From Thermodesulfobacteriota bacterium (GTDB taxonomy: Bacteria; Desulfobacterota; Desulfobacteria; Desulfobacterales; JAUWMJ01), in contig JAXHVO010000059.1 of assembly GCA_034189135.1 (NCBI GenBank), positions 7,336-71,335 of the forward strand: DNA of 64,000 nt. Direction: 5' to 3'. The notes under the pieces are model-generated. The model worked only from the letters and a program-made list of their open reading frames with translations. It did no database searches and had not been told where the DNA came from. The position numbers were made by a program, and so were the translations under genes. Numbering within the stretch: the first letter of the stretch is position 1; each line of letters opens with the position of its first letter. Positions 1 to 61,034 of this stretch are shown piece after piece.

Positions 1-100
1 TCGACCCTTGAAATTAGAGAGTAGGAATAGGGAAAAGACAAACTGAGTTTACCGGGAAAAGGCCAAAGCTGGTCCTTATAATTTCAACGTTTTCCAAACG
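1..100 (+). repeat. Family-2 GAAA-rich intergenic repeat, copy 2d (left end cut by window edge)
   Basis: CTTGAAATTAGAGAGTAGGAATAGGGAAAAGACAAACTGAGTTTACC aligns with copy 2a (11556-11653) in the same orientation. It lies upstream of fliH. Confidence 0.5.
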
Positions 101-170
101 CTTACAAAACCTCATTCTGGTCTTCAATTTAGAAGATTGACGTATTAAAGGACACAGGATTATTAATATA

Positions 171-3038: not shown

Positions 3039-3054
3039 TGGCACAATACCTGCA
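3039..3054 (+). promoter_or_regulatory. sigma54 (-24/-12) promoter candidate upstream of fliK
   Basis: TGGCACAATACCTGCA has GG and GC exactly 10 nt apart. It lies 50 nt upstream of the fliK ATG. Confidence 0.65.
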
Positions 3055-7110: not shown

Positions 7111-7126
7111 TGGCACAATACTTGCT
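7111..7126 (+). promoter_or_regulatory. sigma54 promoter candidate upstream of fliL
   Basis: TGGCACAATACTTGCT with correct GG-N10-GC spacing, 68 nt upstream of fliL. It is nearly identical to the fliK promoter. Confidence 0.65.
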
Positions 7127-11521: not shown

Positions 11522-11555
11522 GTGCATAACCTCGCAACGAAATTCAGTAGTCGTT

Positions 11556-11653
11556 TACGGTTTGAAACTTGAAAATAGAAAGTAGAAATTAGGGAGAGAT
11601 GAAACGAGTTTGCGAATTGAAAGCCAAATTTCCAATTTCTATTTTCTAATTTC
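11556..11653 (+). repeat. Family-2 GAAA-rich intergenic repeat, copy 2a
   Basis: ACGGTTTGAAACTTGAAAATAGAAAGTAGAAATTAGGGAGAGATGAAACGAGTTTGCG...AAGCCAAATTTCCAATTTCTATTTTC. The purine arm pairs with the pyrimidine arm. It lies in the fliR-flhB gap. Confidence 0.7.
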
Positions 11654-11732
11654 TTCGTTTAATAAAAGCTTAAAAATTTATTGTTAACTATAATCTGTCA
11701 TTTTTATCTTGTTTGGTTATTAACTAATTCTT

Positions 11733-12809
11733 ATGGCTGAAGAAAGTTTTCAGGAAAAAACTGAGCAACCGACACCTAAAAAAATCGCAGATGCGAGGAA
11801 GAAGGGGACGGTTGCCCAAAGCAGAGAAATTCCATCGGCAATCATATTGCTGACTTCTCTCGGAATTTTCTTTTTCTCTGGAAGCTGGATGTTTTCAAGC
11901 CTGTCGGATTTTATGGGGGGGATATTTCGAAATATCGGTACATTTAAAATTTATGATATTACCACTGCAAGCACACTATCGACTATAATCTTAAAGAATG
12001 TATTATCAATTATACTTCCTTTTATGCTGGCAGTGGTGGTTGCCGGCATAATGGCAAATATCCTACAGATCGGCTTTTTGTTTAGCCCGGAAGCGTTTTC
12101 TCCCAAACTGTCCAAATTCAATCCTTTAAAGGGTATAAAAAAACTCTTTTCCTTAAAATCGTTTGTTGAGCTTATTAAATCCTTAATCAAGATAACTTTT
12201 GTGGGTGGGATTGCTTATTTAACCATAAAGATGGAAATAAAGACCATTCCGATCTTAATGCAAATGGGCATTAAGGATATTGTATCATTTGTCGGTATTA
12301 CTTCTTTTAAAATTTGCCTGTATGTATCCATGGCTCTGATAATTATGGCTGTTTTGGATTATATTTATCAGAAGTATGAGCATATTAAGGGTTTAAAAAT
12401 GACCAAACAGGAAGTTAAAGATGAAAATAAGCAGACAGAAGGAGATCCTAAAGTAAAAGCCAGAATTAGAAGTATTCAGTTAGAAATATCCAGGCGTCGA
12501 ATGATGGAGTCCGTTCCTGAAGCAGACGTGGTGATTACCAACCCCACTCATCTGGCCATTGCACTTAAGTTTGATGCTGAAAAAATGATTGCTCCAAAGA
12601 TAATGGCCAAAGGCGCTGGGAAAATAGCTGAGCGGATCAGAGAAATTGCCGATGAAAATCATGTGCCGATAGTGGAAAATAAACCTCTGGCCCGGACGCT
12701 TTTTAAAATCGCTGAGATAGGCGATTATATTCCTGCAGAACTTTATCAGGCCGTTGCAGAGGTTCTGGCTTATGTGTACCGGTTGAAAGGAATGGCAACC
12801 GGCGCATGA
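11733..12809 (+). CDS. flhB: Flagellar export switch protein FlhB
   Basis: N-terminal EKTEQPTPKKIADARKKG and the autocleavage site NPTH (VVITNPTHLAIAL). Confidence 0.95.
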   Translation: MAEESFQEKTEQPTPKKIADARKKGTVAQSREIPSAIILLTSLGIFFFSGSWMFSSLSDFMGGIFRNIGTFKIYDITTASTLSTIILKNVLSIILPFMLAVVVAGIMANILQIGFLFSPEAFSPKLSKFNPLKGIKKLFSLKSFVELIKSLIKITFVGGIAYLTIKMEIKTIPILMQMGIKDIVSFVGITSFKICLYVSMALIIMAVLDYIYQKYEHIKGLKMTKQEVKDENKQTEGDPKVKARIRSIQLEISRRRMMESVPEADVVITNPTHLAIALKFDAEKMIAPKIMAKGAGKIAERIREIADENHVPIVENKPLARTLFKIAEIGDYIPAELYQAVAEVLAYVYRLKGMATGA

Positions 12810-13100
12810 CCTACAGAAAGATGACCAACCCGGAATAGATGCCATCCACCACAGGGGTGACATTGATTGACCTCCCAACCCGCACCACATTTCCAAACAG
12901 AAATACGTCATGCATGTTAACATCGGCAGCCAATTGTCGATGTGATGTGGCCAGGTGCCTAAAGGTTTTTCGTCAATAAATTATCACCTACCGTCAAACA
13001 ATTAACGCCTTGGATCATCCCCGTTTGAAAAATATTATTAACCTCAGATTATTATCAATCAAAATAAGGCGTTATTGAAATTATTAAGTTCCTTCAATGT

Positions 13101-13116
13101 AGGCACGAAACATGCA
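13101..13116 (+). promoter_or_regulatory. sigma54 promoter candidate upstream of flhA
   Basis: AGGCACGAAACATGCA with GG-N10-GC spacing, about 220 nt upstream of flhA. A second, mis-spaced GGCAC...TTTGC lies at about 13153. Confidence 0.5.
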
Positions 13117-13335
13117 TAATGCTATGTAGTGTTTGCCGGAAAATAGCAACACGGCACCCATCTTTGCCTCTGGCTGCAGCGAGGCAGGGACACATACAGA
13201 GTCAAAAGGGAAAAAACTCATTGCAGATAACTCATAGCAAAAGGATTAAACTCTTCAGATGGTGAGCTATCAGCTGTAAGCTGTGAGCCGATAAATTACG
13301 GAGTAATTTATTCAGAGAAAGAAAGGCATGAACAT

Positions 13336-15438
13336 ATGGAAGTGGTCAGTCAATCAAGGTTAGCGGCGCAAATTCCAATTATATCGAAAAACAGCGATAT
13401 AATAATTGCGTTTGTTGTCGTTAGTATTCTGGCATTTATGGTGATACCTTTGCCTCCGGTACTGCTCGACTTGCTCCTTTCGTTTAATATTACCTTTTCC
13501 CTGACCATTCTTCTTGTTGGTATGTACATCATAAAGCCCCTTGAATTTTCCGCATTCCCCAGTGTGCTCCTCATTGTCACATTGTTCAGGCTATCGCTCA
13601 ATGTGGCTTCAACCAGAATCATTCTTCTTCATGGGAACGAAGGAACAATGGCTGCCGGAAAGGTGATCAAAGCATTTGGAGGCTTTGTGGTCGGAGGAAA
13701 CTACCTGGTAGGAATTATCGTTTTTTTGATTCTGGTAATCATTAATTTTGTAGTTATAACAAAAGGAGCCGGAAGAATAGCAGAGGTTGCGGCCAGGTTT
13801 ACTTTGGATGGAATGCCGGGCAAACAGATGAGCATCGATGCGGATCTCAACGCCGGTTTAATCAGTGAAGAAGAAGCCAGGAAGAGAAGGGAGCAGATCA
13901 CCCAGGAGGCGGAATATTACGGTGCGATGGACGGAGCCAACAAATTTGTTCGCGGAGATGCCATCGCTGGAATAATTATTACCCTGATAAATATAATTGG
14001 CGGACTGGCAATCGGCGTATTTCAAAATTCAATGAGTTTCGCCCACGCGGCGCAGAATTATACCTTGCTCACCATAGGGGACGGACTGGTGACACAGGTC
14101 CCCGCTCTTATCGTATCGACTGCAGCCGGAGTTATTGTAAGCAGGGCAGGATCAGAAAAAAGTCTGGGAAAAGAAATGACCATGCAGATATTATTTCAGT
14201 ATCGAGCCGTTGCCGTTGCTTCAGCAGTCCTTTTTGGATTTGCGCTTGTCCCGGGACTGCCAGGAATTCCTTTCCTGCTTTTAGCAATGGGAGCAGCAGG
14301 TCTTGCCTTTATGGTGTTCAAGGCGGGTAAGAAAAGCCTTGCAAAAGAAGAAGCCGATAAGATGCTGCAAGAAAAAGCCGGGCCGGAAGAAAAGCCGGTA
14401 TCTCTTCCGCTCCTTGACGTACTTGGTCTCGAAGTCGGCTATGGGATTATTCACCTGGTAGATATGGAACAGGACGGCCAGCTTCTGGATCGAATTAAAT
14501 CTATTAGACGTCAGGTCGCACAGGAAATCGGCATTATTGTTCCACCCATTCATATCCAGGATAACATGCAGTTAAAGCCGGGAGAATATTCAATATTATT
14601 GAAGGGAAATGTAGTCGGAACCGGCGAGCTGATGACCAATTATTGTCTTGCCATGGATCCTGGAACTGTTCAGGGAAAGCTGGACGGGGTACAAACAAAA
14701 GAACCGACTTATGGACTGCCTGCAATCTGGATCAAGGAAAGCAAAAAAGAAGACGCCATAGCCAAAGGGTACACAGTCGTTGATCCAGCTACGGTTTTAA
14801 CTACCCATATCTCTGATGTGGTCAGGCGTTTTTCACATGAGTTGCTGGGGAGACAGGAGGTGCAGCAGATGCTGGACATGCTGAAAAACTCCCATCCAAA
14901 AGTTGTGGAAGAACTGATTCCGAATATGCTCTCACTCGGGGGCGTGGTGAAGGTTCTGCAGAACTTGCTGAAGGAACAGGTGCCTGTTAGAGATTTTCTC
15001 GCTATACTGGAGACGCTGGCTGATTGGGCGCCAATGGTAAAGGATATAGATATGCTGACGGAATATGTGCGGCATTCCCTGGCCAGAACCATTACCAACC
15101 TTCATCAAACCGATAAAGGCAAAATACCGGCGATTACATTGGGACACAGTATAGAAGAGTCCGTATCAGAAGCGATTCAGAGAACTGATCAGGGAAGCTT
15201 TGTTGCCATGGAACCGGATCTTGTACAAAAAATCGTTAATGCCCTTACCGGTTATATGGAAAGAATATCATCATTAAATTATCAACCGGTTATTTTATGT
15301 TCTGCCCAGATCAGGCTGCATTTCAAGAAGCTGATTGATCGTTTTATTTCAAATCTGGCTGTTATTTCATATGACGAACTGTCAAGTAATATTGAAATAG
15401 AGTCCTTGGGAATTGTGGAGTTATCAGATGCAGATTAA
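13336..15438 (+). CDS. flhA: Flagellar export-gate protein FlhA
   Basis: 700 aa with FHIPEP-family motifs such as GGNYLVGIIVFLILVIINFVVITKGAGRIAEVAARFTLDGMPGKQMSIDADL. Confidence 0.97.
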   Translation: MEVVSQSRLAAQIPIISKNSDIIIAFVVVSILAFMVIPLPPVLLDLLLSFNITFSLTILLVGMYIIKPLEFSAFPSVLLIVTLFRLSLNVASTRIILLHGNEGTMAAGKVIKAFGGFVVGGNYLVGIIVFLILVIINFVVITKGAGRIAEVAARFTLDGMPGKQMSIDADLNAGLISEEEARKRREQITQEAEYYGAMDGANKFVRGDAIAGIIITLINIIGGLAIGVFQNSMSFAHAAQNYTLLTIGDGLVTQVPALIVSTAAGVIVSRAGSEKSLGKEMTMQILFQYRAVAVASAVLFGFALVPGLPGIPFLLLAMGAAGLAFMVFKAGKKSLAKEEADKMLQEKAGPEEKPVSLPLLDVLGLEVGYGIIHLVDMEQDGQLLDRIKSIRRQVAQEIGIIVPPIHIQDNMQLKPGEYSILLKGNVVGTGELMTNYCLAMDPGTVQGKLDGVQTKEPTYGLPAIWIKESKKEDAIAKGYTVVDPATVLTTHISDVVRRFSHELLGRQEVQQMLDMLKNSHPKVVEELIPNMLSLGGVVKVLQNLLKEQVPVRDFLAILETLADWAPMVKDIDMLTEYVRHSLARTITNLHQTDKGKIPAITLGHSIEESVSEAIQRTDQGSFVAMEPDLVQKIVNALTGYMERISSLNYQPVILCSAQIRLHFKKLIDRFISNLAVISYDELSSNIEIESLGIVELSDAD

Positions 15439-16780
15439 GAGGTTTGAAGCGAAGAGTATGACAGAGGCCTTAAGGTTGATTAAAAAGGAACTGGGGTCTG
15501 AAGCGGTTATTTTATCGGCACGGAGTCTGAAAAAAGAAAGCCGTTTATTGGGGGCTTTGAAAAAAAGCGGTGTTGAAGTCACCGCAGCGACGGACCATTT
15601 ACCTTACCAACCGAAACAGAAAAGTGCATTGGTCAAAAGAGACTTTTATACGGATAAAAACGATCAGTTCAATTTTAACATGCAGGTGAAAAGGGAGGAT
15701 CAACATATAATATCATCTTTGCGGAGTAAATTAATATCTCAAGATATAAATGAAGATATAGCCGATAGACTGGCAAAAGAACTGAAAGAGATCCTTCCCA
15801 CAAAAAGTATCATGAATGAAATGATGGTGCAAGAGGCGTTGGATTCAATTATCAGCGGTATGGGAGTAAGGTTTGACCCCATAAAAGTTAATTTGGGGAG
15901 TCGCAAGGTCATAGCATTAATCGGACCTTCCGGCGCTGGAAAGACAACCACCGCTGTCAAGCTGGCGACTGCCTGGAAATTTGAAAAGAAAAGAGATGTT
16001 GCCCTGGTTATCATGGATGGTCACAGGATCGGTGCGGTGGATCAAATGAAGACTTATTCAAGAATTATAGGGGTGCCGGTGGCAATTGTTTCCGGTAGAA
16101 ACGAGTTGAGAGAAGCCATAAAAAAATTAAGATATAAGGATCTGGTGATTATAGATACTCCTGGATTGAACTGGCAAAATGACCTGCAGCTTGAAAAGTT
16201 TTATAAATGTTTTGAGAAGATGAAAAAAATTGAAACCCATCTTGTTCTCAGTGCAACCACCAAAGAGAAAGATTATATCAATATTGCAGAAAAATTGAAT
16301 AAGTTTGAAATCAACAGGTTGATATTTACCAAAATCGATGAGAGCAGCACCCACGGAAACATACTCAGCCACTTAATTAGAACGAAAATACCGGTTTCAT
16401 GTTTTACCTGCGGGCAAGAGATTCCTGAAAGTATTGAAGAGGCGTCTATGGATAGATTGCTCGGTTTGATTATAAACAAAGCAAAAGAAAAAAGATATGG
16501 GACCGGGTTTGTTAAAAAAATAGAAACCGTGGACAGTGAAGTGAAAACAGAAAGTGATATAAAAGAATATTTTGTGGCAAACCAAAATTCAGATGTTTTT
16601 CACCGACCCGGCTGCAAATGGACGAGGATGATAAAGCAGGATAATATTGTTGTTTTTAAAAGTGTGGCAGAGGCTGAAGAAAAAAGGTTTAAGCCATGCA
16701 GATATTGCAGGCCTAAACCGGAAGTAGAATATGAGTGCCTGCAATATGGTATGAGCAAAAGAAAAATCGCAAGCGGTTAA
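15428..16780 (+). CDS. flhF: SRP-type GTPase FlhF with an extra C-terminal Ada-like zinc-finger domain
   Basis: Begins MQIKRFEAKSMTEALRLIKKELG (canonical FlhF B-domain start). The ATG at 15428 overlaps the flhA stop. G domain motifs GPSGAGKTTT and DTPG are present. The tail VFHRPGCKW...FKPCRYCRP matches the Ada_Zn_binding pattern. Confidence 0.9.
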   Translation: MQIKRFEAKSMTEALRLIKKELGSEAVILSARSLKKESRLLGALKKSGVEVTAATDHLPYQPKQKSALVKRDFYTDKNDQFNFNMQVKREDQHIISSLRSKLISQDINEDIADRLAKELKEILPTKSIMNEMMVQEALDSIISGMGVRFDPIKVNLGSRKVIALIGPSGAGKTTTAVKLATAWKFEKKRDVALVIMDGHRIGAVDQMKTYSRIIGVPVAIVSGRNELREAIKKLRYKDLVIIDTPGLNWQNDLQLEKFYKCFEKMKKIETHLVLSATTKEKDYINIAEKLNKFEINRLIFTKIDESSTHGNILSHLIRTKIPVSCFTCGQEIPESIEEASMDRLLGLIINKAKEKRYGTGFVKKIETVDSEVKTESDIKEYFVANQNSDVFHRPGCKWTRMIKQDNIVVFKSVAEAEEKRFKPCRYCRPKPEVEYECLQYGMSKRKIASG

Positions 16781-19698: not shown

Positions 19699-20030
19699 AT
19701 CGGGGAGTTTTTCAATCTGTACTCAGTTCGTTCGGGGAAGCGCCCATTGGCCCGTATCAGCCTTAACAATCATTTCGAGAAACTGGCGTACGGTCCGCCT
19801 AGGCGGACTGAGATTCGATTTGAACCAGCCCCAAGGGACAGAATCCCACGGCAGCGTTGATCGTCTCTGCCTGTGTGTATTTAACTGAGAAGATAGGGGG
19901 CGTGTACAGAGTGCTGGGATTATTTGTTAAGGCTGATACGGGCCAATGGGCGCTTCCCCGAACGAACCACTAACAATCATTAAAGCTCAAACGGTTCATA
20001 AAAAAGGCCTAGGCAAAAATTGCCCGGTGG
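19699..20030 (+). repeat. Family-1 palindromic element, copy A
   Basis: 44-nt arms 19726-19769 and 19924-19967 are perfect reverse complements (44/44). They flank a 154-bp core. Outer arms are GATCGGGGAGTTTTTCAATC... and ...AAAATTGCCCGGTGGC. Confidence 0.85.
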
Positions 20031-29362: not shown

Positions 29363-30178
29363 ATGGCATTGGTTTCGTTTGAGCTAAATGACAGGCAGTT
29401 TAAAAAAATAAGCCGGATTGTTTACCAATACAGCGGCATTGCATTGAAAAGGGGTAAGGAAGCTCTGGTCAGGGCACGTCTTGCCAAACGACTACGTATT
29501 TTAGGAATGACAGATGTTGAAGAGTATATGACGCACATCGAAAGTACTGAGGGGGCCAACGAACTGAGGGCGATGCTTGATATAATGACAACCAACAAGA
29601 CCAGTTTTTTCCGTGAGGTAGAGCATTTCAAATATATGGAAAGGGAGATATTGCCAAGGCTGAAAAACAACAGGATGAGGTTTTGGAGTGCTGCCTGTTC
29701 TTCAGGAGAAGAGCCTTATTCGATCGCAATTTCGCTTATGGAAAAACTGCGGGGAGTTGAGTCAAAGGATGTCCTTATTCTGGCGACCGATATATCGTCT
29801 GGAATGCTTAAAAAGGTCAAAGACGCTGTTTACAGCGAGGAAAACATCCGTGACCTTCCCAAAGCGTTTTTGCATAAATATTTTACCAAAGTTTCCAAGA
29901 ATCCGAGCACGTTTTATAAGGTAAAAGATAATGTCCGTTCAATTGTTCGGGTGGCCTGGTTAAATCTCATGGAAAATTGGCCCATGAAAGGAACTTTTAA
30001 TGTGATTTTCTGTCGCAATGTGATGATTTATTTTGACCGGCCCACCCAGGAAAAATTGATAAATCGATTCTATGATTACCTGGAGCCGGGTGGGCATCTT
30101 TTTGTCGGTCATTCGGAAGGATTGTCCGGTGTTCAGCATAATTTTAATTATATAAAACCGGCAACCTATCGGAAATAG
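29363..30178 (+). CDS. cheR: Chemotaxis methyltransferase CheR
   Basis: CheR N-domain plus SAM-binding motifs RFWSAACSSGEEPYSIA and FCRNVMIYFD. Confidence 0.93.
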   Translation: MALVSFELNDRQFKKISRIVYQYSGIALKRGKEALVRARLAKRLRILGMTDVEEYMTHIESTEGANELRAMLDIMTTNKTSFFREVEHFKYMEREILPRLKNNRMRFWSAACSSGEEPYSIAISLMEKLRGVESKDVLILATDISSGMLKKVKDAVYSEENIRDLPKAFLHKYFTKVSKNPSTFYKVKDNVRSIVRVAWLNLMENWPMKGTFNVIFCRNVMIYFDRPTQEKLINRFYDYLEPGGHLFVGHSEGLSGVQHNFNYIKPATYRK

Positions 30179-30235
30179 ACATTGTAGCTCAGCTTAATTT
30201 TAGCCAGAAACGATTCAAATACACGGTTTGCATAT

Positions 30236-37542: not shown

Positions 37543-37877
37543 GATCGGAGAGTATTTCAATCTCCACTCAGTTCGTCCGGAGGAGCGCCCATTTGCCCGT
37601 ATCAGCCTTAACAAATAAGTCCGGCACTCTGTACACGCCCCCTATCTTCTCAGTTAAACCCATACAGGCAGAGACGATCAACGTTGTCGTGGGATTCTGT
37701 CCTTTGGGGCTGGTTCAAATTGAATCTAAGCGAGATAGCTGCCGAACGCCGGTTTCTCGAAATGATTGTTAAGACTGATACGGGCAAATGGGCGCTCCTC
37801 CGGACGAACTACTAACAATCATTAAAGCTCAAACGGTTCATAAAAAAGACCATTGATAAGAAACTCACCGAGCCATC
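37543..37877 (+). repeat. Family-1 palindromic element, copy B (core inverted)
   Basis: Arms 37571-37614 and 37767-37810 pair 43/44. The outer arms are oriented as in copy A, but the 152-bp core is the reverse complement of the A/D core. Confidence 0.85.
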
Positions 37878-38577: not shown

Positions 38578-38689
38578 AATAAAACGTTTTGACCGGTTGA
38601 GTAAATGAGCGGCTGAACTGTTGAAGGATAAGACGACATAACCGCTCAACGACTCATCTGCTCAAACAAACAAGGAAGAGGTGATAACA

Positions 38690-40567
38690 ATGTTTAAGAA
38701 TATGAAAATAAGTACCAAAACAAGTTTGGTTATCGCCGTTGCCTTGATTTCGATTTCAGTTATTTTAGGTTTTGTCTCAGTTATGCAGTTGATGCGAAAC
38801 GGGAAGCTGGCTGTTGCCCAGATAGAAAGGCTAGGCACTGATAACATTGAAAGGATAAAGGCGGACGGAAAAAGCCAAATACAAGCCTTTCGTGAGGAAC
38901 GCATGTTGCGGGAAAAGGAATACCTGAAGTCACAGGTTCAGACAACTATGAGTGTCCTTAAGAAAGCCTTAAAAGATGCCACATCCTTAGACAGCGGAAG
39001 TGTACTAACTGAACAGGTTAAAAAGGCCATCATACTTGAACAACAGGAGAGCATCGCGGGTTTTATCGGCGCACTTCGCTATGGTCCCGAAAATAAGGAT
39101 TACTTCTGGATCAACGACATGCATCCGAAGATGGTCATGCATCCTTATAAACCGCAGCTGAACGGTAAAGATCTCTCTGAAAGCAAGGACCCGAACGGCA
39201 AAAGGCTATTTGTGGAATTTGTCAAAGTCTGTCGTGAACAGGGTGAAGGATTCGTGGATTATTACTGGCCCAAGTACGGTGCAGACCAGCCGCAACCCAA
39301 ACTTTCATTTGTAAAGCTTTTTAAAGAATGGAACTGGGTGGTGGGCACCGGAGTATATATCGATGATATCGACAAAATAGTGAATATCAAAAGGGGAGAA
39401 TTGGAGAACGAAATAAAAGCGGTTATGGCTGATATGAACAAACAGGTTGATTCAACCAAACGAGAATTTCAAAAAAATGTCCGACAGGTCATTATGCTAA
39501 CAAGTGTAATTTCGCTGATTGCTTTGGCGGTGGTATTGGCCGGGTCTTATTTGTTTGCCAAATGTAATATAACAAAACCGATCAGCCGAATCATAGAGGG
39601 GATGAATGAAAGCGCCGAGCAGGTGGCATCCGCATCCGGGCAGGTTTCATTTTCCAGTCAGTCTCTGGCGGAAGGCTCATCGGAGCAGGCGGCCTCCATT
39701 GAAGAAACATCAGCATCCTTGGAAGAGATGTCCTCCATGACAAAGCAGAATGCCGAGAATTCAAAACAGGCGGATGCTCTAATGCAGGAGTCAAACCAGA
39801 CGGTAGGCCGTGCCAGCACATCGATGACAAATCTTAAGGATTCCATGATCGATATCACAAACGCAAGCCGGGAGACATCCAACATTATAAAGACCATTGA
39901 TGAAATTGCCTTCCAGACCAATCTTCTGGCACTGAATGCAGCAGTAGAAGCAGCCAGAGCCGGTGAAGCCGGAGCCGGATTTGCTGTGGTGGCCGAAGAG
40001 GTTCGAAATCTGGCCATGCGCTCTGCAGATGCCGCTAAGAACACTGCTGAACTGATAGAAGACACGGTTAAGAAAGTAAAAAATGGATCCGAGCTGGTAA
40101 ATACGACTTCTGATGCTTTTGCTGAAGTGGCTGCCAGTTCCGCCAAGGTTGCCGAATTGATCGGAGAGATTGCTGCAGCGTCAAACGAACAGGCGCAGGG
40201 AATTGATCAGGTCAATGTAGCGGTCACCGAAATGGACAAGGTCACCCAGTCGAATGCCGCCGGAGCAGAGGAATCCGCGTCAGCTTCGGAACAGATGAAT
40301 GCACAGGCGGAAGAGATGAAGCGTATGGTGAATGAGCTCGTAGCGATGGTCGGCGGAAGTGCAAAAGGAGCCGGAGATGGGGCAGGATCATTCGGGTGGA
40401 GAAAAATGATTCCAGGCGATGGAGCAGGAAAAAGACCAGAAATATCCCAAAAGGCTCCTGCTGAAACACCGGGCAAGGGAGTAAAGAAGATTGTGCATCA
40501 CCAGGCAAAGGAAGTTAATCCCAAACGGGTCATTCCTTTGGATGATGCGGAATTTAAAGATTTCTAA
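38690..40567 (+). CDS. Methyl-accepting chemotaxis protein with a periplasmic Cache-type sensor
   Basis: Two TM helices flank the Cache-like segment [25 protein letters not shown]...[12 protein letters not shown]. The MCP signalling domain reads [37 protein letters not shown]. The C-terminus is EFKDF. Confidence 0.93.
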
Positions 40568-43094: not shown

Positions 43095-44333
43095 ATGTTT
43101 AATTTAAATGAAATTTTAATAGCCTCTGCTGTTATCTCAGTAGGTGCATTTATGGTAGCGGCTGTCTTGTACATGATTTATAAAAAGACACTAACTTTTA
43201 TGCTTTGGGTAAGATTGATGCCTGGAATAATCATTCTCTGCATCGATCTTTTTACCTGGGGAAGATTTGGCGTTTATAATGTGCTGATTAGTGCAGTTAT
43301 GCCGCTCATAGGTGTTAGCCTTATGGTTGCGAACCTTATCTACGTTGCGAAGAAACTGTCTGTTCCCCTGATACGTATTATCGAGGGCTTGAGCGAAGGA
43401 TCTAACCAGGTGGCATCCGCTTCAGGACAGATTTCGTCTGCAAGCCAGTCACAGGCGGAAGGTGCTTCAGAGCAGGCTGCATCCATAGAGGAAACATCTT
43501 CTTCCCTTGAAGAGATGTCGTCCATGACCAAGCAAAATGCTGACAATGCCGGCCAGGCGGATAAGCTTATGCAGGAAGCCAATCAGGTCGTTGTTGAAGC
43601 GAATGATGCCATGGGCAAACTGACCACTTCTATGGAGAATATCTCCGAAGCAAGTGAAGAGACACAGAAAGTAGTAAAGACAATAGATGAGATAGCCTTC
43701 CAGACAAACCTGCTTGCACTGAATGCAGCAGTAGAGGCCGCCCGTGCCGGTGAAGCAGGGGCCGGTTTTGCTGTAGTAGCGGAAGAGGTAAGAAATCTTG
43801 CACTACGTTCTGCGGATGCAGCCAAAAGCACGGCAGAACTTATTGAAGGTACCGTCAAGAAAGTAAGTGATGGGTCGAAATTAGTGGAAAGGGCCAACGA
43901 AACCTTCAGCAAAGTGGAAAAGAGTGCTTCTAAGGTAGGTGAGCTGGTAGGTGAAATAGCCGCTGCATCTAATGAACAGGCCCAGGGTATTGAGCAGGTG
44001 AACACAGCGGTAGCTGAAATGGATAAGGTTGTACAGACAAATGCCGCCAATTCTGAAGAAACGGCCTCCGCATCTGAAGAGATGAATGCCCAGGCTGAAG
44101 AAATGAAGGGGTTTGTCAGGAGTCTGTCAGTTCTGGTCGGAGAGAGTGAGAATGGAAAAGATAACGAGCAGGACGAGGACGCTGCGCTCATGCAACCAAA
44201 AACCAAACCTCAGAGGCTCGCTTTCGCTGCAAAGATGAAAGCAGGCACTGGGGAAATGGCTGTTGTTCAAAAAAAAGAAGTGAAACCGAATCAGGTGATC
44301 CCTTTGGATGATGCTGATTTTCAGGATTTTTAA
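43095..44333 (+). CDS. Methyl-accepting chemotaxis protein (membrane-embedded N-terminus, no periplasmic domain)
   Basis: About four predicted TM segments precede a signalling domain highly similar to the 38690 MCP ([37 protein letters not shown]). The C-terminus is DFQDF. Confidence 0.92.
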
Positions 44334-54198: not shown

Positions 54199-54231
54199 TA
54201 TTGGTCTACTTGTAACCGTTCAATGAATGAT

Positions 54232-54336
54232 GAATTTAGAAAATAGAAATTGGAAATTTTAGGCCTTCACCTCGTAACAACGTCTTATCTTATCCTAATT
54301 TCTACTTTCTGATATCAAGTTTCAAGCCGTGAACGG
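54232..54336 (-). repeat. Family-2 GAAA-rich repeat, copy 2b (between feoA and feoB)
   Basis: The reverse complement aligns with copy 2a: ...CGGCTTGAAACTTGATATCAGAAAGTAGAAATTAGG...AAAATTTCCAATTTCTATTTTCTAAATTC. Confidence 0.7.
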
Positions 54337-54343
54337 CTTCTTT

Positions 54344-54571
54344 CTATTTTACATTATCAACCGTGATAAGAGCTGCTTCTTCCACACGAAGTGATATATG
54401 ACATCCCTTTATTATCAGTTCAAGGGGATCTTTCAAGGGAGCATATTTTTCAATATATATTTCAGTACCTTTTAAAATTCCCATTTCAAGTATTCGCCTG
54501 CGCAATGCACTGTTTCCGCCGATGGTTTCAATGCTGGCGGTCTGACCTTCTTTCATTTCACTTAATAACAT
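54344..54571 (-). CDS. feoA: Ferrous iron transport protein FeoA
   Basis: 75-aa SH3-like FeoA with MLLSEMKEGQTASIETIGG and RRRILEMGILKGTEI. Confidence 0.9.
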   Translation of the reverse strand: MLLSEMKEGQTASIETIGGNSALRRRILEMGILKGTEIYIEKYAPLKDPLELIIKGCHISLRVEEAALITVDNVK

Positions 54572-56342: not shown

Positions 56343-56668
56343 GGCCGGGGGTTTCTCCTTAAAGGTTTTTGGTAAGCCGTTGCGTTTTAATGATCGTCAA
56401 CGGTTCGCCTTGGGGATGGCCTATTCGCCCGTACAAGCCTTAACAAATTATTACAGTGCTTTGCAGCCGCCCCCTATATTCTGCGTTACGCTCATACAGG
56501 CAGAGACGATCATCGCCATCGTGGGAATCTGTCTACTGGGGCTGGCTCAAATCTTATTTCAGCGAGATAGCTGCCGTACGTCAGTTCCTCGATATTATTG
56601 TTAAGGCTTGTACGGGCGAATAGGCCATCCCCAAGACGAACAGAGCAGGGATTGAAAAACTCCCCGAT
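56343..56668 (-). repeat. Family-1 palindromic element, copy C (whole element in reverse orientation)
   Basis: Arms 56403-56446 and 56598-56641 pair 43/44. The long outer arm is on the left and the short GATTGAAAAACTCCCCGAT arm is on the right. The core-to-arm relationship is the same as in copy A. Confidence 0.8.
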
Positions 56669-57458: not shown

Positions 57459-57797
57459 GATGGGTCGGGGAGTTTTTTAATCTCTACTCAGTTCATCCGG
57501 AGAAGCGCCCATTTGCCCGTATCAGCCTTAACAATGATTTTGAGAAACCGGCGTACGGTCCGCCTAGGCGGACTGAGATTCGATTTGAACCAGCCCCAAA
57601 GGATAGAACCTCACGGCAGCGTTAATCATCTCTGCCTGTATGGATTTAATTGAGAAGATAGGGGGCGTGTACAGAGTGCTGGAATTATTTGTTAAGGCTG
57701 ATACGGGCAAATGGGCGCTTCTCCGGATGAACCTCTATCAACCATTAAATAACAAACAATTCACCAAAAATGCCATTAATAAGAAACTCCCCGATGC
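57459..57797 (+). repeat. Family-1 palindromic element, copy D
   Basis: Arms 57491-57534 and 57689-57732 pair 44/44. The core is about 90% identical to copy A. It fills the convergent gap between the hydrolase gene and cinA. Confidence 0.85.
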
Positions 57798-60835: not shown

Positions 60836-60867
60836 TGGGCATTTAAAAATTACTGTAATTAGTTACG

Positions 60868-60995
60868 GAATGTTGAAATTTGGAAATTTGGCTTTAATGC
60901 TTTGGTGCGATTAATAAACGCATCCACCTGGTAAACTCACTTCATTTCTCCCCAATTGTTTTTTTCAGTTTCATGTTACAAGCCGTGAGTGGCTA
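60868..60995 (-). repeat. Family-2 GAAA-rich repeat, copy 2c (divergent, with an insertion)
   Basis: The reverse complement reads ...CACGGCTTGTAACATGAAACTGAAAAAAACAATTGGGGAGAAATGAAGTGAGTTTACC...AAGCCAAATTTCCAAATTTCAAC. It shares the conserved blocks of copy 2a. Confidence 0.55.
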
Positions 60996-61034
60996 AAAAA
61001 TATTTTACGGTTTCCAATTTCCGTTTTATTTGGA

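Follow-up and report, generated by a model that had tools for sequence, protein, structure and literature searches.

The window, i.e. the whole stretch of 64,000 nt that was analysed, contains four copies (c1-c4; Table 1) of a short repeat with inverted arms, located in the gaps between fliR and flhB (c1), between feoA and feoB (c2) and between a TPR gene and a 259-aa ORF (c3), as well as upstream of fliH (c4). As noted in a first-pass annotation of this DNA, all four lie between co-directional protein genes and in the sense orientation to both neighbours. The gene assignments given there are borne out by NCBIfam (fliH, fliR, flhB, feoB and the TPR protein) and by the ORFs (feoA being a 75-aa ORF at 54344-54571 on the minus strand), apart from the 'LolB-like' label of the 259-aa ORF, to which NCBIfam gives no support.

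Four copies had been claimed, and exactly these four were recovered, with no extra window match, by an independent HMM trained on 40 copies of other genomes and free of window sequence; a second HMM, made from the window copies, likewise detected no fifth copy in the 64,000-nt window. The window copies align end to end with the model of foreign copies, and their terminal inverted repeats (TIRs) are degenerate yet recognisable. The borders first proposed for them were too short, since the degenerate TIRs had been overlooked; the true ends lie ~10 nt further 5' and ~20 nt further 3'. The internal order described earlier, i.e. the motif ACGGYTTGAAAC (4 matches versus 0.7 expected) followed by a purine arm, an GGGAGARATGAAR block and a pyrimidine arm, was found again. 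The fliR-flhB and feoA-feoB junctions, regarded as normally tight, have indeed been enlarged by insertion, and c2 makes up 129 nt of the 145-nt feoA-feoB spacer.

Table 1. Repeat copies of the window, their parts and an empty target site (positions are those of the window; minus-strand features are read from the higher to the lower position).
Feature	Position	Strand	Remarks
c1	11547-11673	+	fliR-flhB gap; complete but degenerate MITE; HMM E=1e-21
c1 5' TIR GTAGTCGTTTACGG	11547-11560	+	
c1 heptamer purine arm	11569-11593	+	
c1 SD-like GGGAGAG	11592-11598	+	
c1 ATG	11599-11601	+	then remnant codons MKRVCEL to 11619
c1 pyrimidine arm	11624-11653	+	
c1 degenerate 3' TIR	11654-11673	+	
c1 left TSD remnant GAAATTCA	11539-11546	+	partner AAAATTTA at 11673-11680; 6/8, 1-nt offset
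c2	54212-54340	-	feoA-feoB gap; best-preserved hairpin; HMM E=2e-22
c2 5' TIR GAAGCCGTTCACGG	from 54340	-	3 nt past the feoA stop codon
c2 3' TIR ...TTGAACGGTTAC	to 54212	-	13 nt ahead of the feoB ATG (54198)
c2 TSD remnant AAATAGAA / AAGTAGAC			6/8
c3	60855-60996	-	gap between TPR gene and 259-aa ORF; decayed MITE; HMM E=2e-13
c3 TSD remnant AATATTTT / AGTAATTT			6/8
c4	<1-105	+	upstream of fliH (ATG 171); HMM 2-105, E=1e-3
c4 3' TIR ...CCAAACGCTTAC	to 105	+	
Empty orthologous target site	30158-30200	+	BLAST of reconstructed empty site spans the junction unbroken

The only public contig with the FlhB of the window is a 4-kb Logan contig (SRR24907505_421289, here L001), which corresponds to window positions 11624-15741 and begins inside the 3' arm of c1. 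A contig end at this place indicates that the repeat breaks short-read assemblies, and such repeats disrupt the genome assemblies of sulfate reducers from seep and hydrothermal habitats.

A family scan, in which a 21-mer of the 3' arm was compared with one genome per species, returned at least 120 stretches. The matches listed originate mostly from Desulfobacterota MAGs of seeps and hydrothermal sediments (Seep-SRB2, Eth-SRB1 and Ca. Desulfaltia), and the few matches in unrelated taxa are probably due to chance. The loci fetched from the matches listed hold ~130 elements of 68-459 nt, the complete copies among them representing 72 distinct sites after de-duplication, and the termini of the TIRs (GTAGCCGTTCACGG.../...CCGTGAACGCTTAC) are conserved in 81 complete copies. 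In intact cassettes the TIRs are ~22 nt long (GTAGCCGTTCACGGCTTGAAAC ... reverse complement of GTAAGCGTTCACGGAACGTTGAAA). The 5' half of an element consists of GTAGCCGTTCACGGCTTGAAAC, the tandem heptamers GAAATTG GAAAGTA GAAATTT and GGGAGAGATGAAAC..., after which a variable segment follows, and the 3' half of ...AACAGTACAAAAGCATGAAGG, complementary heptamers (CCAAATTTCCAATTTCTATTTTC) and AACGTTCCGTGAACGCTTAC. The purine and pyrimidine arms are, in other words, inverted tandem heptamers (GAAATTG/GAAAGTA/GAAATTA) placed just inside the TIRs.

Direct 8-bp target duplications (TSDs) border many of these elements: they are perfect (8/8) in 18 of 79 copies and match at 7/8 in a further 14 (32/79 at 7/8 or better), with poor TSDs in the other 47, while a shifted control gave 0/77 at 6/8 or better. 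The target context is AT-rich and palindromic (~TAA-N8-TTA). Furthermore, filled and empty versions of the same junction were found among relatives: (i) L116 is filled and L094 empty, with flanks that are 84% identical, (ii) L098 is filled and both L039 and L040 are empty, and (iii) a junction that is empty in the window itself (30158-30200) holds a 107-nt copy in two other MAGs (L058 and L069). The filled site of L116 (7372-7515, versus ~2790-2815 in L094) has no 8-bp duplication, which would mean either the loss of one TSD or a different route of arrival for this copy.

Copies may also lie close together. In L074 (3500-7700) they occupy successive junctions of the rimM-trmD-rplS-rnhB housekeeping operon, and in L061 (1-6700) the murJ, rpsT and holA-lptE-leuS junctions, with several copies per 8 kb. 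The AUK013 MAG (L027, L029, L043, L045, L051, L059, L084 and L090) holds a 105-nt variant with the 5' end GCAGCCG..., which is always preceded by the same ~40 nt and followed by the same ~20 nt, the outer ends being different. Several of these copies are antisense to nearby ORFs. They were considered as parts of a larger element, which was rejected as the common unit is only ~165-185 nt.

The longest copies (~455-459 nt; L071 and L118) carry, between the heptamer arms, a 117-aa ORF (MKRVYELDVYKLAEELSD...NSTKA), which is the only ORF of the element; no transposase gene is present inside. Its product belongs to PF05635 (23S_rRNA_IVP; E=5e-23) and TIGR02436 ('four helix bundle protein'; E=3e-23), and among solved structures the X. 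campestris XCC0516 pentamer (PDB 2GSC) is the nearest. Perfect 8-bp TSDs border nine of the full-length copies. Shorter copies contain remnants of the ORF that form a graded series, with N- and C-terminal fragments of every length; AACAGTACAAAAGCATGA, for instance, represents the last five codons and the stop of the 117-aa gene. Internal deletions thus keep the SD, the ATG and the first and last codons between the arms. One deletion junction, GGGAAGA/ACAGT, occurs at at least 12 sites with unrelated flanks, which indicates that short forms multiplied as such.

The window copies belong to this series of remnants. Alignment to consensus copies revealed that c1, c2 and c4 have a single deletion junction in common, at which ...GAGTTTACGAG is joined to GTGAAGGCC. 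Copy c3 retains ~27 nt from the start of the ORF, with a stop now at codon 3, and joins codon ~9 to the ...NAFINSTKA tail (tblastn remnant at 60930-60898). Copy c4 is strongly decayed and its 5' end is lost to the window start. No intact PF05635 ORF was detected within the window.

A wider family was obtained by a metagenome scan with the ORF, which yielded 80 loci of 45-97% protein identity. Inverted tandem repeats flank the ORF in these relatives as well, a period of 7 being the best in 51/65 upstream and 59/65 downstream flanks, and the heptamer varies by lineage (GAAATTG, GAAACTG, GATACTT or AACGTCC). The GTAnnCGTTCACGG ends are found in the closest relatives only, among them the nine with perfect 8-bp TSDs. 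Intact ORFs show a median dN/dS of 0.15, i.e. they are under purifying selection. A homologue on a Pseudanabaena plasmid (38% identity) is co-oriented in an operon and has no heptamer arms, so this architecture is not universal for PF05635.

Taken together, the TIRs, the 8-bp TSDs, the empty orthologous sites and the ORF-bearing parent identify the elements as MITEs, and the parent cassette as a DNA element whose insertion duplicates 8 bp of the target. The earlier interpretation, in which a function in RNA was set against random MITE scatter, is partly supported: the elements are MITEs, but they are not scattered at random.

Four copies are too few for a test of the orientation bias. Complete copies in the relatives' loci fetched from the matches listed were classified, with genes called by our own long-ORF heuristic. 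Among the 72 sites, 33 are sense and 2 antisense in co-directional gaps, 9 are divergent, none is convergent and 28 are unclassifiable. The ratio of sense to antisense (33:2) corresponds to p=4e-8, and the lack of convergent positions (0/44 classified sites) to p~0.002, given that 13% of background gaps in the loci censused are convergent. This census strongly confirms the co-orientation with transcription that had been predicted from the window copies. A looser set, including partial copies, gave 91 versus 24 with respect to the 3'-side gene. Of 65 ORF-bearing relatives, 58 have an upstream gene of the same orientation (p=4e-11), usually at a distance of 30-100 nt; 2 ORF-bearing relatives are in divergent and 8 in convergent gaps. 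Copies therefore persist almost only inside transcription units and in the sense orientation. The short copies (up to 200 nt) have the same bias when taken alone (25:2), and in their case it is not explained by gene expression, since the gene is absent. Gene conversion, in-situ deletion, a cost at the RNA level and a targeting mechanism are all possible causes of the bias of the ORF-less MITEs.

In four cassettes (L130, L131, L188 and L198) the TIR modules (CGG-CTTGAAA and CGG-AACGYTGAAA types) are swapped relative to the ORF. All four are co-oriented with their neighbours by the ORF, and polarity thus follows the cargo and not the ends.

For the whole element an end-to-end stem of ~50 bp, made up of the TIRs and the heptamer arms, is predicted. 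The pairing of the arms that had been proposed for the window copies was recovered in c1 and c2 and was absent from c3 and c4. Copy c2 has the sole convincing fold among them (MFE -36.6 kcal/mol, z=-4.1); c1 reaches -25.1 kcal/mol, with z=-1.5 for the sense and z=-3.7 for the antisense strand, and the folds of c3 (z=+0.5) and c4 are no more stable than those of shuffled sequences. In a set of 80 copies the sense strand has the better fold in 58, and its mean advantage over the antisense strand is 3.8 kcal/mol; this is only suggestive, as these copies are related and the modelled advantage could be inherited from one ancestor. A comparison of duplex energies did not discriminate true from mismatched arm pairs, because the heptamers are common to different loci. 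The sense RNA is richer in G than in C and the antisense RNA richer in C than in G. Neither a sigma-70 promoter nor an intrinsic terminator scored above shuffles in c1, the consensus MITE or the full-length cassette, and an explanation based on outward promoters is therefore unsupported.

We consider it likely that the four repeats of the window are old, ORF-deleted MITEs of the ~455-nt transposase-less cassette, and that this cassette spreads and persists in the following manner. It would be mobilised in trans by a transposase of the IS66 family, as suggested by an IR that starts with GTAAGCG and by the 8-bp duplication. Having no promoter of its own, it would be read as an extra cistron of the host operon. 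In the sense orientation its ends would fold into the ~50-bp stem and loop the insert out of the mRNA, and this stem would probably be cut by RNase III, by analogy with the intervening sequences (IVSs) of 23S rRNA and with Correia elements. Insertions in the antisense orientation would produce untranslated C-rich RNA, would be polar (Rho polarity) and would be purged. The MITEs would share or inherit the sense bias of their parent.

The link with IS66 was derived from the ends. IRs of the IS66 family begin with GTAAGCG and are bordered by 8-bp direct repeats (PMC11946415); this signature is present in the reverse complement of the 3' end, which is GTAAGCGTTCACGGAACGTTGAAA, and the 5' end has the variant GTAGCCG. 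The IR of ISPsk01 (GTAAGCGTCCGGCGAAC...; PMC12888890) is identical to that of our elements at 13 of its first 17 positions. No transposase with matching GTAAGCGTTCACGG ends was found in the loci examined, and a scan of 1.3 Mb of fetched sequence for TnpC motifs, a weak test given the very small sample (~1% of each genome), gave no match. Paired ends lying 0.7-6 kb apart, which might have marked an autonomous partner, turned out to be separate MITEs around rimM-trmD-rplS-rnhB and murJ...leuS, and 'solo' ends to be copies with a degenerate partner.

One alternative is that the short copies arose by in-situ deletion or gene conversion at occupied sites, so that their bias is inherited from read-through-dependent, ORF-bearing ancestors. 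The unequal lengths of copies at orthologous sites (229 versus 199 nt and 204 versus 173 nt), the continuous series of ORF remnants and the same bias in ORF-bearing copies are in agreement with such an origin. However, the recurrent GGGAAGA/ACAGT junction is accompanied by clean TSDs as well as by unrelated flanks, three window copies have one junction at three loci, and the distribution of the MITEs (9 divergent and 0 convergent) differs from that of the ORF-bearing relatives (2 and 8, respectively). We regard this origin of the short copies as somewhat unlikely.

Alternatively, the bias might be made by the insertion machinery (transcription-coupled or asymmetric capture near gene starts) and not by later selection. 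The youngest copies (TSD of at least 7/8) include no antisense insertion, convergent gaps, where insertion should be harmless, are free of copies, and on the sense strand the 5' end of the TSD is rich in purines. Against this, the flanking target motif TAA-N8-TTA is palindromic and the four cassettes with swapped TIRs are still co-oriented by the ORF; moreover, DDE transposons are not known to sense the direction of transcription. A bias of this origin is accordingly judged unlikely.

In the first-pass annotation the hairpins were suggested to act at the RNA level, e.g. by processing or stabilising transcripts. On that reading they would be host-serving cis-regulatory RNAs, used for differential expression within operons and spread by their usefulness. 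Their strict sense orientation in transcription units, the better folding of the sense strand (by 3.8 kcal/mol on average), the very stable c2 and the precedents of Correia and ERIC elements, i.e. MITEs with effects on mRNA (PMC10969869), would fit such a role, but it appears quite improbable. The hairpin is lost in two of the four window copies (c3 and c4), and the same junction may be filled or empty among relatives, the window included. The 'conserved block' GGGAGARATGAARYGAGTTTRC is not an RNA motif but the SD, start codon and first codons of the parent gene in a decayed state. No Rfam 15 family was hit at the gathering score, and at E<=1 only chance matches to miRNA hairpins appeared. Finally, the adjoining genes have no function in common, as they belong to flagella, iron uptake, the ribosome and the cell envelope.

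Single-strand Y1 transposases are not known to make 8-bp target duplications, and a REP/RAYT origin was rejected on account of the clean 8-bp TSDs. Despite termini in which GTAG precedes a short palindrome (GCCGTTCACGGC) and an inverted end pair that, like that of REPINs (PMC3116915), folds into a long hairpin, it is thus extremely improbable that these are REP/REPIN-type palindromes moved by a RAYT (IS200/IS605-like), the more so as the IR fits the IS66 signature (PMC11946415).

The decayed-cassette reading can be compared with several known systems. Like the MICs and MITEs of IS families, the elements have TIRs, a TSD of fixed length, no transposase and many dispersed copies, with a passenger gene that the long form (MIC) carries and the short form (MITE) lacks. 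They differ from IS66-type MICs and MITEs in their PF05635 passenger and long subterminal heptamer arrays, and from MITEs in general in their strong sense bias within transcription units. REP, BIME and REPIN sequences are also intergenic, palindromic and often located within operons, and have a hairpin beside a GTAG-like head; however, RAYTs move REPINs without duplicating the target, whereas our elements have 8-bp TSDs and an ORF-bearing parent.

In the 23S rRNA IVSs of Leptospira and Coxiella, a PF05635 ORF (S23p) is likewise enclosed by inverted repeats that form a long stem. In Coxiella, the IVS has a PF05635-family ORF preceded by variable tandem heptamers, a stem cut by RNase III and deletions in the ORF (PMC4990558). 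Heptamers just upstream of the ORF, decay by deletion and the sense orientation in a highly transcribed unit are features that our elements have in common with it (PMC4990558). Unlike IVSs, they reside in spacers of protein operons and not in helix 25 or 45 of 23S rRNA, and an rRNA context was not found in any of the 12 loci with long non-coding flanks. A further difference lies in the explicit TIRs and 8-bp TSDs, which are unreported for IVSs in the literature searched. Excision by RNase III is proven for IVSs, whereas here the ~50-bp stem is a prediction.

Correia elements (CREE/nemis) of Neisseria are MITEs of ~100-150 nt that are co-transcribed with their neighbours and have hairpin-forming TIRs (PMC2649163, PMC10969869); our elements resemble them in these respects, their co-transcription being presumed. 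In mRNA, the Correia TIR hairpins are cut by RNase III, which alters the fate of the transcript (PMC10969869, PMC2649163). The two differ in the TA duplication, promoter creation and IHF site of Correia elements, which contain no gene remnant, and there is no sequence similarity between them. By analogy with IVSs and Correia elements, processing of the stem at the RNA level is plausible. The Avd accessory proteins of DGRs belong to the same four-helix-bundle fold family as the cassette protein (PMC10053308; 2GSC match), but, unlike in DGRs, no reverse transcriptase, template repeat or variable repeat was found beside the cassettes.

The window copies themselves are probably inert relics. According to the fold predictions, the mRNAs of fliR-flhB and feoA-feoB would still contain a stable hairpin, contributed by c1 and c2, respectively; seen as a repeat of a single genome, the element is an ordinary decayed MITE, and its four copies probably do little.

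At the level of the family, the TIRs, 8-bp duplications and empty sites constitute sequence-level evidence that a cassette with an IVS-protein gene is transposable. In the literature searched, no description of a transposable PF05635 cassette was found, and the finding bears on the origin and mobility of IVSs, a question open since the early 1990s. A broader reading, which we put forward tentatively as possible rather than probable, is that PF05635 genes with inverted tandem heptamers belong to a widespread class of cassettes that insert by DNA transposition and live as parasites of transcription units. Such cassettes would depend on read-through by the host for their expression and would be harmless because their long terminal stem is excised from the transcript; TIRs and the 8-bp TSD were seen for one clade of this class. 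The 23S IVSs would then be its rRNA-resident members and the PF05635 genes of cas operons hitch-hikers. PF05635 genes inside cas loci, beside cas4 and cas6, have been read as functionally linked (PMC3936711), for which insertion of a cassette into the operon is an alternative explanation. Caution is thus advisable, as PF05635 genes located within operons (e.g. cas loci) are not necessarily partners of their neighbours. The rule of sense insertion in transcription units also makes RNase III excision and Rho polarity testable by simple reporters.

Other features of the window were recorded as well. A second, unrelated repeat family of ~240 nt is present at 19726-19967, 37570-37810, 56403-56641 and 57491-57732; its copies are 75-91% alike, have perfect or near-perfect inverted arms of 44 nt (GTTCGTTCGGGGAAGCGCCCATTGGCCCGTATCAGCCTTAACAA...) and probably represent another MITE. 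Two stretches lying 3787 nt apart (39587-40567 and 43374-44333) are ~71-79% identical, and correspond to the 3' parts of paralogous genes (ORFs 38681-40567 and 43095-44333). Finally, two near-identical sigma-54-type -24/-12 motifs occur at 3039-3054 (TGGCACAATACCTGCA) and 7111-7126 (TGGCACAATACTTGCT); each is followed, 50-70 nt downstream, by the start of a flagellar ORF (3104 and 7194, respectively).
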